DNA from: Myxococcales bacterium
GTDB taxonomy: Bacteria; Myxococcota_A; UBA9042; JABWCM01; BTVJ01
Direction: 5' to 3'
Length of the DNA: 41,294 nt
Assembly: GCA_045863395.1 (NCBI GenBank)
Contig: BTVJ01000064.1
Span: 1 to 41,294 of the forward strand
Shown: in pieces, positions 30,039 through 37,071 of the stretch
Numbering within the stretch: position 1 is the stretch's first letter
Layout of the letters: every line of letters starts with the position of its first letter
Notes under the pieces: generated by a model
Told to the model about the DNA's origin: nothing
The model's input: the letters and a program-made list of their open reading frames with translations, nothing else
Database searches by the model: none
Program-made: the position numbers and the translations under genes

Positions 30039-30308
30039 TCAGAGCACCGCGTACCGCTCCGGCTTGTACGGCTCCCGTGCCCTCCCCAGGAGCACCGCCT
30101 TGGGCTCACAGGTCCCGCACAGCGGGTGTACCCGAACGTCGTCCTCGGCCGTCAGGATCAACGGGAGGAGCATGGCGCCCACCTCCTGCGCGGTGGCGCG
30201 GTGCACGAGGAACACGCTGTACTGCACCCGGCGCCCGACGGAGGCCAGCGCTTTGGCGACCAGCCGGCGCCGCTTGTCGTCCGGGATGTCGTAGGCAACG
30301 AGGAGCAT
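30039..30308 (-). CDS. cas2: CRISPR-associated endoribonuclease Cas2
   Basis: [12 protein letters not shown]...GRRVQYSVF; directly downstream of cas1. Confidence 0.95.
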
Positions 30309-30311
30309 GGG

Positions 30312-31292
30312 TCATCCGGCTGCGGCTCGGCCGTCCATCACCTCGGTGCGCAGGCGCGCGACGCGGGTGTCAATGGCATCGCGCGGGCCCCGGTCCCCCG
30401 GCCCCTGGGCAGCCATGGCCTCTTCGAAGAGCGACAGCCACCGCTTGAGCGCCCGGGTCTGCAGGCGAACTCCGCGCGCGCCGAGAAGCTGGAAATCGTC
30501 TGGCGCCACCATGCGCCGGTTGATCACCGAGAGCGTGAGCCGGTCGACGACGCGCACGCGAAAGGGCTCGATGACGTCCAGGGCCAAGGACGACCTGCCG
30601 TAGCGGACGCCATGATAGTACCCGACACGGGGGTCGAAGCCTGCCGCCTCCAGCCGCCCCGCGATCTCGCTGGCGAGCAGCGTGTAGCCGAGGTTGAGCA
30701 GGGCGTTGACCTCGTCCTCGGCCGGGTGGCGCGAGCGCCGCGTGAAGGCGAAAGGCGGCCTCACCATCGTGGAGAACCCCTCGAACCAGGCGGCTGCGGC
30801 CGCTCCCTCGATTCCCCGGAGGGAGTCCAGGTCCGCTGCATCGGCGCAGCGAGGGACTGCCTGGTCGAGCCGCACGAGCACCCCGTCGAGCACCGGGGCC
30901 GCGTCGGGGTGGTTGCGGCGGTACCGCTGCGCGTGCTCCCGCGCCCCCCGAATCTTGTCGGTGACCAGCCCCTTCGCGAGCGCCAGCCGGAAATCCTGCT
31001 GCGTGTAGCGGGCGTGCTGGGCAAGACGCAGGAAGACATTGCCCGACTCAGGCCCCACGATCTGGCCCCGGTACCGCCCCTGGGACGAGAGCAGCACCAC
31101 GGAGACCCCATGGCGCAGGAGCAGCGCGATCGCCTGCGTCGTGAGCTGGACGTTCCCCATGAGCACGACCCGGTCCAGCTCGTCGGCGGCCCAGCGGTCG
31201 AGCTCCTGACGGTCGACGGAGACGGCGATCTGGGCGGCCGACCGGTGGATGCGCGCCCCCTGGTGAGTCACGTAGACGACCTTGCGGACCAT
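30312..31292 (-). CDS. cas1: CRISPR-associated endonuclease Cas1
   Basis: LRGIEGAAA, VNALLNLGY, GFDPRVGYYH and LALDVIEPFR motifs; catalytic E, H and D residues are present. Confidence 0.96.
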   Translation of the reverse strand: MVRKVVYVTHQGARIHRSAAQIAVSVDRQELDRWAADELDRVVLMGNVQLTTQAIALLLRHGVSVVLLSSQGRYRGQIVGPESGNVFLRLAQHARYTQQDFRLALAKGLVTDKIRGAREHAQRYRRNHPDAAPVLDGVLVRLDQAVPRCADAADLDSLRGIEGAAAAAWFEGFSTMVRPPFAFTRRSRHPAEDEVNALLNLGYTLLASEIAGRLEAAGFDPRVGYYHGVRYGRSSLALDVIEPFRVRVVDRLTLSVINRRMVAPDDFQLLGARGVRLQTRALKRWLSLFEEAMAAQGPGDRGPRDAIDTRVARLRTEVMDGRAAAG

Positions 31293-31320
31293 GCTCTCTC
31301 CTGGTTGCGGTTCTGGGGCG

Positions 31321-36345: not shown

Positions 36346-36400
36346 CGCGCCTCCGATTGAGTGGTAGCCGATGGACAACGCGGGTTGAACCGTGGTCGGG

Positions 36401-36820
36401 TCAGACCCAGACGCGCCCCGTCTCCTTCCACTCCTCGTAGTGAAACAGCCAGGCCGACACCCACGCGAGCAGAGTGACGATGGTCGACCGCCTGGTGAAC
36501 GCCTCCCCATGGTCCAGGCAGAGAGAGCCGTCGATGAACCGGTGAGGGGTGTTGGCTGGGAGATCCGGCTCGACGATGTGGGCGACCGGCATGACCCCGT
36601 CGCCGTAGTTTGGTGGCAGCGCCACGAGGATCCGGTACGCAGCCCGCAGAGAGCGGTTTGGTCCTACGATTCCCGTGGCGTACGTGATGCCGTTGTGGTG
36701 GACGTCCACGGTGAACCCTGGGTACTCCTGGGCGAGCACGTCTCTCTCCATGAACAGTCGCTCGCGTCCCTCGGGCGTCTCCCAGAACTGTCCAACTGCT
36801 GCCCAGACGTGCGCGCGCAT
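36401..36820 (-). CDS. Prokaryotic E2 (ubiquitin-conjugating-like) protein
   Basis: RERLFMERDVL, YRILVALPPNY, PHRFIDGSLCL (putative catalytic Cys101) and AWLFHYEEWKETG. GGAGGTG precedes ATG 36820. Confidence 0.82.
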   Translation of the reverse strand: MRAHVWAAVGQFWETPEGRERLFMERDVLAQEYPGFTVDVHHNGITYATGIVGPNRSLRAAYRILVALPPNYGDGVMPVAHIVEPDLPANTPHRFIDGSLCLDHGEAFTRRSTIVTLLAWVSAWLFHYEEWKETGRVWV

Positions 36821-36822
36821 GG

Positions 36823-37071
36823 TCACACCTCCACCAGAGAGGCGAAGTCGCACTTGGACTCGCTGGCGTCGATGCAGGCACCACCCCACTCGTGATCCTT
36901 CATGCTCACGCCCGCAGGAGCTTTGCCGTCTGGAGCGTGCTGCGACGGCTTTCCGGCGCTGGCGTGTGGAGCGGCGTGGGCGGGGTCCACGGCGACCATC
37001 TCACCGTTGACGATGCGGACTGACCCAGCCTCCTTGAGGTGTCTGCGGAGCTCCTCGATGGTCTCGTTCAT
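36823..37071 (-). CDS. Small 82-aa protein, candidate modifier/substrate peptide (contains HEWGG)
   Basis: GGAGG SD, GC3-rich codons, stop 2 nt before the E2 start; first gene of the operon. Alternative start at 37086. Confidence 0.7.
   Translation of the reverse strand: MNETIEELRRHLKEAGSVRIVNGEMVAVDPAHAAPHASAGKPSQHAPDGKAPAGVSMKDHEWGGACIDASESKCDFASLVEV

Follow-up and report, generated by a model that had tools for sequence, protein, structure and literature searches.

A Bub/CBASS-like ubiquitin-like conjugation module as accessory of a CRISPR adaptation operon in Myxococcota

The means by which cells limit and steer the uptake of new spacers are poorly understood, and to our knowledge no post-translational switch acts on the CRISPR adaptation machinery. 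A 41.3-kb contig from a Myxococcales bacterium (GenBank assembly GCA_045863395.1, contig BTVJ01000064.1; contig C64 of a genome of 8.77 Mb with roughly 70% GC) raises the question of whether such control could be exerted by covalent protein conjugation. On this contig, which was analysed over its entire length and is called the window below, genes resembling ubiquitin-like conjugation systems (encoding an E2, a JAB protein and an E1) run directly into a cassette for CRISPR adaptation. The latter consists of a fusion of reverse transcriptase (RT) and archaeo-eukaryotic primase (AEP) domains, named RT-CAPP after the CRISPR-associated primase-polymerases (CAPPs), followed by cas1 and cas2. A first-pass annotation made from the letters of the DNA alone had described eight co-oriented genes with short gaps, which the coordinates of the open reading frames (ORFs) bear out: all eight lie on the minus strand in the order peptide, E2, JAB with E2-like domain, E1, small transmembrane (TM) protein, RT-CAPP, cas1 and cas2, with intergenic distances of 2, 55, 3, -8, 8, 28 and 3 nt.

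The system is a CRISPR adaptation module with a conjugation accessory that resembles the Bub systems and the cyclic oligonucleotide-based antiphage signalling systems (CBASS). Likeness in sequence and analogy with these systems suggest, with a probability that we put at about 0.55, that the module activates the C-terminal tail of the RT-CAPP and conjugates the enzyme itself, and that the JAB protein trims this tail and reverses the attachment. A CRISPR adaptation operon of RT-CAPP, Cas1 and Cas2 would then have captured a complete, minimal ubiquitin-like conjugation module.

Gene order and transcription of the linked locus

Relatives of the JAB protein are rare and fell into six clusters in a word-based search, those of the E1 into 32, and five related loci were fetched (L001-L005). 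Two of these, L003 and L005, break off within the JAB gene. In all three that extend past the E1 gene (L001, L002 and L004; about 40-55% protein identity) a small TM gene follows and then an RT-CAPP gene; cas1-cas2 is present in both loci that reach further (L001 and L002), and L004 keeps the order to the end of its contig. When 401 Myxococcota genomes were scanned for the E2 family, 11 were positive, and CAPP and cas1 lie beside the E2 gene in four of these: the genome of the window itself, G279 and G289 (the sources of L002 and L001, respectively) and G076, which carries a distant variant (L034). The gene order of L034 is fused peptide-E2, a second, Cys-less E2-like gene, a fusion of JAB, E2-like domain and E1, RT-CAPP, cas1, cas2 and an array. 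The stand-alone E2-like gene, at 10237-10656 of L034 between E2 and the JAB-E1 fusion, has an Ala at the position of the catalytic Cys. The combination of an E1/E2/JAB trio with CAPP and cas1, which the first-pass annotation had noticed in this one genome, thus recurs elsewhere, in L001, L002 and the distant L034 and, as far as its contig goes, in L004.

In a tree of CAPP domains with 20 rows, from which tblastn segments shorter than 200 aa had been dropped, the four linked proteins formed one branch with support of 98/94, and a Cas1 tree agreed weakly with this branch (37/34). Because gene order is kept across the loci and the linked CAPPs form one branch, the linkage is old and has been retained. 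The two halves are one conserved unit and not a chance neighbourhood.

The conjugation genes also occur elsewhere. Two genomes of one genus (loci L030 and L032) encode peptide, E2, JAB with E2-like domain, E1 and two small TM proteins with no CAPP or cas gene, and since they carry the module alone, it must have a function of its own. Neighbours of the module in L030 (5079-17607; contig C214 of G094) are genes for a helix-turn-helix regulator, a helicase, TraG-like and relaxase-like proteins and an integrase, and it is probably located on an integrative mobile element. The ancestral unit comprises five genes, which were joined by a CRISPR adaptation cassette. Distant JAB/E1 loci (L006-L009) and E2 loci (L031, L033 and L035-L037), searched by tblastn only, gave no CAPP or cas1 match.

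It seems highly improbable that two independent systems, a Bil/Bub-like defence and an adaptation module, merely travel together here in a defence island. Ubiquitin-like operons have been reported near CRISPR loci in defence islands, as far as the available part of the Bil preprint goes (10.1101/2023.09.26.559546), but family scans of the ORFs show that the remainder of the window consists of housekeeping genes and is not such an island. Independence would also fit the trio without cas genes in L030 and the seven of 11 E2-positive genomes whose fetched flanks contain neither CAPP nor cas1, although some of those contigs are short. It would not account for the close junctions between the halves, an 8-nt overlap and an 8-nt gap, nor for an order that is identical at about 40% identity and kept in the distant variant, nor for the single branch of linked CAPP domains. 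Moreover, both the C-terminal tail and the YxDN motif described below are specific to linked RT-CAPPs.

Contigs from two metatranscriptome studies, 95-100% identical to the window, tile 29917-37112 and span every junction of the operon (cas2/cas1/RT, RT/TM/E1, E1/JAB and JAB/E2/peptide). In the two studies they end at 37112 and 37123, some 40-50 nt upstream of the peptide start, where DNA contigs continue, and in one RNA run the depth is zero over 37191-37507. This hints weakly at a single transcript with its start a short way upstream of the peptide. A scan of 29700-39400 for promoters and terminators returned no site of either kind and is uninformative at this GC content. Joint transcription of the two halves, as claimed in the first-pass annotation, is therefore supported in so far as RNA-library contigs bridge all junctions, while a single transcript is not proven by such contigs.

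Enzymes and peptide of the conjugation module

The E2 of the window has no match in any of the family libraries used (Pfam, PADLOC and NCBIfam), but a profile of five relatives matches 8hsb_B, the E2 of E2-CBASS (E 0.0013; entry described in PMC12948482), which is the closest solved relative. A profile search brought up 414 representative clusters, and among 86 aligned relatives UQ_con was matched by 21, Prok-E2_B by 10 and E2-ntca by 8. His93 and Cys101 of the window protein are conserved, and both positions are nearly invariant across the 86 rows; the catalytic Cys thus stands at residue 101 of 139, as had been noted before. The AlphaFold model of the fused form of L002 has a mean predicted local distance difference test (pLDDT) score of 86, with a core above 93, and the top Foldseek matches of the E2 model are all E2 enzymes. 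By sequence and model the gene is assigned to UBC-fold E2 enzymes, with a predicted catalytic Cys preceded by a conserved His.

The JAB domain occupies residues 1-165 of its protein (PADLOC JAB 4.4e-10; Pfam Prok-JAB 7e-4, below cut-off). Its JAMM site is complete, with E26, H87xH89, S97 and D100 invariant in alignments of six and of nine rows, and the model has the MPN fold, for which Foldseek returned Rpn11, CSN5, AMSH and Cap3. Cap3 (9ild_A) is also the best sequence match in the PDB. The C-terminal half had been taken for E2-like, and hhalign upholds this: a domain of alpha-beta4-alpha topology at about residues 193-280 aligns to the E2 profile (79%, E 1.6e-5). This domain has no Cys and is, judging by its sequence, an inactive E2-like domain.

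The E1 has one ThiF domain, at residues 116-281 (PF00899 2.6e-20; PADLOC E1-E2 3.2e-23), and its PDB profile matches are UBA5 (6.6e-17), MoeB, ThiF, Cap2 (6e-14) and BubCD (6e-7). The nucleotide-binding residues are intact in an alignment of 30 rows. There are only four cysteines, all in two CxxC pairs, and all 30 sequences share Tyr296 in the crossover loop, which lies 19 residues past the first of these pairs. By these features it is classified as a minimal adenylating enzyme of the UBA5/MoeB/ThiF/Cap2 kind.

In the small TM protein, an N-terminal TM helix is joined by a Pro-rich linker to a conserved C-terminal [VI]-[DN]-x-[FYH]-G-E-[LI] motif, and counterparts stand at the same position in L001, L002 and L004. 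In the cas-less L030 module two tandem small TM proteins with the same C-terminal motif follow the E1 gene, and for this reason the TM protein is assigned to the conjugation module and not to the CRISPR half.

The 82-residue peptide is not an unrelated small gene, since its counterpart in relatives is the beginning of the E2 gene. The fused E2 proteins of L001, L002 and L005 align with it over their first 65-70 aa, and peptide and E2 form a single ORF in these three loci as well as in L034 and in the representative P0016. The fused form is modelled (AlphaFold, L002) as a helix, a hairpin, a disordered linker with V-K-x-H-x-W-G/A and then the UBC core, and VK-x-H-x-W-G/A is found at the peptide-E2 junction of L001, L002, L005 and P0016 and in the peptide of the window. 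In the window peptide, a helix and a beta-hairpin precede a disordered linker, K-D-H-E-W-G-G and 18 more residues; an upstream ATG at 37086, which is open too, would give 87 aa. The peptide is a separate ORF in the window, in L003 (terminus HEWGSP, with the ORF overlapping the E2 start) and in L030, where the terminus is exactly ...K-P-T-T-W-A. A distant member of the E2 family from the representative library (P0064, 245 aa) has three tandem peptide units before the E2 core, each ending in K-P-N-R-W-Y, which is reminiscent of polyubiquitin precursors. Since the peptide is fused in some lineages, is a separate ORF ending at or just after W-A/G in three, and is triplicated in P0064, it behaves like a pro-modifier, and its sequence makes it likely that it is a modifier or pro-modifier. 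The earlier statement that no beta-grasp ubiquitin-like protein (Ubl) is present thus stands, but for that fold only, the peptide being a likely modifier of another fold. An assembly error as cause of the split between peptide and E2 was rejected, as four other runs from different studies have no indel over 36501-37404 and the split arose independently in L003.

Among the systems described so far, type I Bub (6E.1) is close in organization, as far as the available part of the preprint by Ye et al. (2024) shows (10.1101/2024.11.21.623953). There, a JAB-E1 fusion, in which a catalytic Cys is lacking and a Tyr of the crossover loop is invariant, cuts a Ubl-E2 fusion right after a conserved Gly. 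Here, the putative modifier is fused to the N-terminus of E2 in five members (L001, L002, L005, L034 and P0016), whereas the window, L003 and L030 have it split off; the E1, of minimal UBA5/ThiF-like build, likewise lacks a catalytic Cys and keeps a Tyr in the crossover loop throughout; and JAB-E1 fusions occur in L034 and in the representatives P0175, P0177 and P0181, while the window has separate genes. The Bub JAB releases the modifier, and by analogy the JAB protein may do so here. The differences are that the modifier, modelled as helix and hairpin, is not predicted to be beta-grasp, that the junction residue is an A or G following Trp, that the E2 sequence keeps a near-invariant Cys whereas Bub is described as using oxyesters, that UBA5, MoeB and Cap2 are closer to the E1 in sequence than BubCD is, and that genes for CRISPR adaptation adjoin the module. 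Unlike type I Bub, the operon and flanking ORFs also gave no Pfam match to DUF6527/BubE. The Bil systems (BilABCD) comprise the same four roles of modifier, E2, JAB and E1, and in the part of the preprint available their JAB first trims a Ubl made with as many as nine surplus residues, similar to the removal of a few C-terminal residues considered here (10.1101/2023.09.26.559546). They differ in that the Bil modifier is reported to be a beta-grasp protein ending in Gly and in that the E1 studied here has a single adenylation domain with no catalytic Cys.

The shared C-terminal tail and its proposed use

The RT-CAPP combines an RT domain (PF00078 1.6e-19), an AEP primase-polymerase domain (PF22548 4.7e-10; PADLOC PrimPol 1.9e-17), a C-terminal domain, a low-complexity linker and a terminal N-H-E-W-A; the model for CRISPR-associated primase-polymerases (NF040561) matches at 2.9e-37 with 128 bits, under the curated cut-off of 200 bits. 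All eight RT-CAPPs of the close linked family carry [PN]-H-[EDR]-W-A after a variable low-complexity linker. The tail is the exact C-terminus in six of them and is followed by 9-10 extra, non-conserved residues in the other two, and H838, W840 and A841 are invariant in the alignment of this family. The two proteins of L001, RT-CAPP and peptide-E2, each have an R in the position that separates H from W. Control loci, defined by a CAPP or RT-CAPP beside cas1 with no E1, E2 or JAB found by tblastn, numbered 13 and included contig C78 of the genome itself; none of their 17 CAPP ORF ends had the motif, and most end in a sequence like ...RF[RK]IEL. Among 44,555 open frames of the whole genome, such an end was present only in the RT-CAPP and in one junk frame. 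The latter, an open frame on contig C83 that ends in PHQWG, was rejected as a second substrate because it is an Arg/Gly/Pro-rich junk frame. The tail motif was not found at the ends of Cas1 and Cas2.

Since the RT-CAPP ends in the same tail as the peptide, it would be a substrate of the module, covalently attached via its C-terminus in the manner of the CD-NTases of type II CBASS, with JAB reversing the link. Comparison of the tails suggests that the RT-CAPP itself is probably attached to other proteins. The first-pass annotation had considered tethering of the RT-primase to phage or host proteins, for which the tail copied from the module peptide now supplies an argument from sequence; the conjugation itself we infer. 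Published precedents in Bub, Bil and E2-CBASS supply each of the steps that JAB, E1 and E2 would take. JAB would cut directly after H-x-W-G/A, by which the peptide is freed from E2 or from a short C-terminal extension, and would also trim those RT-CAPPs that bear extra C-terminal residues. E1 would then adenylate the exposed C-terminal Ala or Gly, and the acyl group would move to Cys101 of E2 and from there to an amino group of the target. The likely purpose would be to switch on or position the spacer-making polymerase, and because the module includes a TM protein, the reaction may take place at the membrane. From cleavage through adenylation and conjugation of the RT-CAPP to the target and the effect on adaptation, these steps are proposed on the grounds of sequence and analogy.

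The precedent for an immune enzyme that offers its own C-terminus as conjugation handle comes from CBASS, and the H-x-W-A tail suggests that the RT-CAPP does the same. In E2-CBASS, the CD-NTase C-terminus, made up of a helix, a small sheet and a terminal Gly, is described as covalently linked to E2 (PMC12948482, in the part available). The closest solved E2 and JAB (8hsb_B and 9ild_A) both come from CBASS, and the E1 also matches Cap2. Type II CBASS has an E1-E2 fusion whereas separate genes with JAB between them are found here, JAB being present in both. The window also differs from CBASS in lacking a CD-NTase or effector, in having an extra free peptide with the same tail, and in its putative substrate, which would be a CRISPR adaptation polymerase.

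An alternative is that only the peptide is conjugated, be it to RT-CAPP, to Cas1-Cas2 or to a phage or host protein, and that the H-x-W-A of the RT-CAPP is a non-covalent docking motif or pseudo-substrate. The tail would then recruit the RT-CAPP to E1, E2 or the inactive E2-like domain, or compete with the peptide. We regard this as unlikely, though several findings agree with it: the Cys-less E2-like domain of the JAB protein could bind such tails, the tail is shared but only predicted to be adenylated, L030 shows a module that stands alone with its own peptide, and L034 is linked without the tail. A docking motif need not be terminal, however, and the position of the motif at the extreme C-terminus in six of eight proteins, with short non-conserved extensions in the other two, corresponds to that seen in E1 substrates and precursors in Bil and Bub, as far as the texts available describe them. 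The invariant terminal Ala/Gly also argues against mere docking.

If the RT-CAPP is conjugated, as we favour, the outcome could also be repressive. The module would in that case mark the RT-CAPP for turnover, or keep it inactive in a covalent E2~RT-CAPP adduct that lasts until an infection, and would be an off-switch which prevents the autoimmune uptake of spacers rather than a device for targeting. In E2-CBASS, the source of the closest solved E2, this enzyme is covalently bound to the CD-NTase, which it regulates (according to the available part of the source), and the degenerate motif C in eight of nine linked proteins suggests an unusual and tightly controlled enzyme. Against this, E1 and JAB are present here, unlike in E2-CBASS, and no protease or proteasome-like gene beyond the JAB module was found among the operon ORFs scanned, so that we consider an off-switch improbable. 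The chemistry would be the same as in the explanation preferred here and the outcome alone would differ, between which sequence cannot decide.

The fuller version of the preferred explanation, in which conjugation of the RT-CAPP places spacer acquisition under ubiquitin-like control, is tentative and stands at somewhat less than an even chance. The RT-CAPP tail would mimic a mini-modifier without beta-grasp fold, be adenylated by an E1 that has no catalytic Cys and be attached by E2 to a partner, possibly at the membrane, which would license or localise the synthesis of prespacers until JAB reverses the link. If true, this would be the first covalent protein conjugation to govern CRISPR adaptation, and the RT-CAPP would be a second, independent immune enzyme acting as its own 'ubiquitin', after the CD-NTases. 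Cap2 reportedly 'primes' CD-NTases by conjugation, which Ledvina et al. and Jenson et al. are said to have described in 2023; the principle of an enzyme as its own ubiquitin would be widened beyond CBASS. The findings also point to a very small non-beta-grasp modifier cut from an E2 precursor, which bears on the evolution of ubiquitin-like tails. The tail shared by the polymerase and the peptide of the module makes this a directly testable hypothesis.

Several observations weigh against conjugation of the RT-CAPP by the module. Firstly, the RT-CAPP of L034 ends in ...RVRRNTP without the motif though the linkage is kept, and tail conjugation is therefore not the universal basis of the linkage. 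Secondly, in L030/L032 the module occurs with neither CAPP nor cas genes in a setting like that of an integrative and conjugative element. The linked family is small, is confined to Myxococcota as far as visible, and its members are kin and not independent. Thirdly, E1 has no catalytic Cys, which makes the chemistry uncertain. The peptide is modelled by AlphaFold as helix and hairpin and then disordered, not as a beta-grasp, with its motif region at a pLDDT of about 60-66. Trp is followed by Y, F or C in E2 relatives at a greater distance; this would be unusual for the end of an E1 substrate, and the motif might instead be a structural or docking element of E2. Lastly, RNA libraries can contain DNA, so the bridging contigs are no proof of a single transcript.

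The linked RT-CAPPs also differ from their relatives in the RT domain. The catalytic motif of the RT is degenerate in this family: motif C is YSDN in the window (residue 213) and YxDN in eight of nine linked RT-CAPPs (window, L001, L004, L034 and P0010-P0013), the remaining one, L002, having YADD; all ten unlinked RT-CAPPs have YxDD. The DxD and His residues of the AEP domain are invariant in the linked-family alignment. This could imply that the primase-polymerase rather than the RT is the polymerase-active domain. CART-CAPP modules at type III CRISPR loci were described by Zabrady et al. (2021, PMC8211822; 2023, PMC10415136), and as far as the available parts of these papers show they likewise have an RT-AEP Prim-Pol fusion with a C-terminal domain beside cas1-cas2 and an array. 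In the CART-CAPPs studied there the RT was active and the Prim-Pol domain inactive (PMC10415136, available part). Here, in contrast, the AEP residues are invariant by alignment and motif C is YxDN in most linked members, and a linker and H-x-W-A stand where other CAPPs mostly have an end of the ...RF[RK]IEL type. Having lost the canonical motif of the RT while the primase-polymerase site is kept, the linked family may be the opposite of the CART-CAPPs examined to date.

The claim that no described system joins the two halves needs some qualification. Ubiquitin, ThiF and JAB are not mentioned in PMC8211822 or PMC10415136, and a search of literature combining Cas1 or spacer acquisition with ubiquitin-like terms gave only reviews and unrelated papers, with no analysis of the link. 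The Bil preprint reports such operons near CRISPR loci in defence islands and, in the part available, nothing further on the link (10.1101/2023.09.26.559546). We found no published analysis of the link, the shared tail or the split pro-modifier. However, the legend of Fig. 6B of Altae-Tran et al. (PMC10910872, available part) lists ThiF among the domains newly linked to adaptation modules, and the co-occurrence of ThiF and adaptation genes may already have been catalogued there.

Features of the window and other loci

Coordinates of the operon and its neighbours are collected in the table. An alternative reading on the plus strand was rejected, as none of the 12 overlapping plus-strand ORFs at 24.9-39.2 kb has a Pfam match, for which reason they are taken as shadow frames of a 70% GC genome.

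Table. Positions of the operon genes, the divergent gene and the CRISPR array in the window, with the basis of each assignment.
Feature	Position	Strand	Basis
Peptide, likely modifier or pro-modifier	36823-37071	-	ORF, 82 aa
E2 (UBC-fold)	36401-36820	-	139 aa; profile match 8hsb_B, AlphaFold/Foldseek
JAB/JAMM protein with predicted inactive E2-like (UEV/RWD-type) domain	35374-36345	-	PADLOC JAB, JAMM residues, model
E1-like adenylating enzyme (ThiF/MoeB/UBA5 type)	34219-35370	-	383 aa; PF00899
Small TM protein	33855-34226	-	123 aa; ORF and counterparts at same position
RT-CAPP (CART-CAPP; RT-AEP)	31321-33846	-	841 aa; RVT_1, AEP-TOTE, NF040561, PADLOC PrimPol
cas1	30312-31292	-	PF01867 5e-85; TIGR00287 above cut-off
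cas2	30039-30308	-	PF09827 2e-13; TIGR01573 above cut-off
Divergent gene, no family assigned, possibly TPR-like	37429-39180	+	BLASTP to L001 gene
CRISPR array	39364-41294	+	25 copies of 37-nt repeat; reaches contig end

The array lies about 2.3 kb from the peptide start, as the first-pass annotation had stated, with its leader side facing the operon. The 3' end of its repeat is ATTGAGAC, spacers measure about 38-41 nt and the last repeat ends at 41230. The array of L002 has the same geometry and is divergent, and its repeat shares the 3' end with that of the window. Over the region on which RNA-library contigs were placed, their depth is by far the highest at 39004-39400 (86 and 9 in the two studies), covering the leader and first repeats, which suggests that the array is transcribed.

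Between operon and array, the divergent gene is related (BLASTP E 3e-20, 24% identity) to a divergent gene at the same position in L001 (1607-3133). Its true start is uncertain, as homology begins at about residue 126. No counterpart was found in L002 and no match in Pfam, PADLOC or NCBIfam; its language-model neighbours are tetratricopeptide repeat (TPR) proteins at 0.91, so it possibly encodes a TPR-like helical repeat.

Among the ORFs of the window scanned there was no cas effector gene, type III effector genes included, and the array abuts the contig end. Nor did any of them match SMODS, which agrees with the earlier statement that a CD-NTase is lacking. In L002, a weak SMODS match (1.3e-5, below cut-off) lies four genes on, downstream of cas2 (12661-15739), together with an AAA ATPase; these genes are outside the conserved block and are absent from the window and from L001.

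Two other arrays of the genome were noted. Contig C99 carries one of 18 repeats at about 23569-24867 (L017, 18570-19945), with a repeat that differs from that of the window at few positions; it is situated at the contig end, adjoins genes for a DnaE-type polymerase and a transporter, and has no cas or effector genes near it. A separate CRISPR locus of the genome, on contig C78 (7036-34490), contains the only Cmr2/Cas10 gene of the genome and an array of 99 repeats, whose repeat is unrelated to that of the window. Its cas1 is flanked by a CAPP and an RT-CAPP gene, both without H-x-W-A and the latter with YADD as RT motif, and it served as an internal control.

Elsewhere in the window, the ORF at 2748-5687 on the plus strand encodes a 979-aa protein with a DUF6209 domain. 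Inside it, tandem repeats of 75-81 nt at 4034-4792 encode a Cys-rich unit of about 25-27 aa with several CxxC-like pairs.

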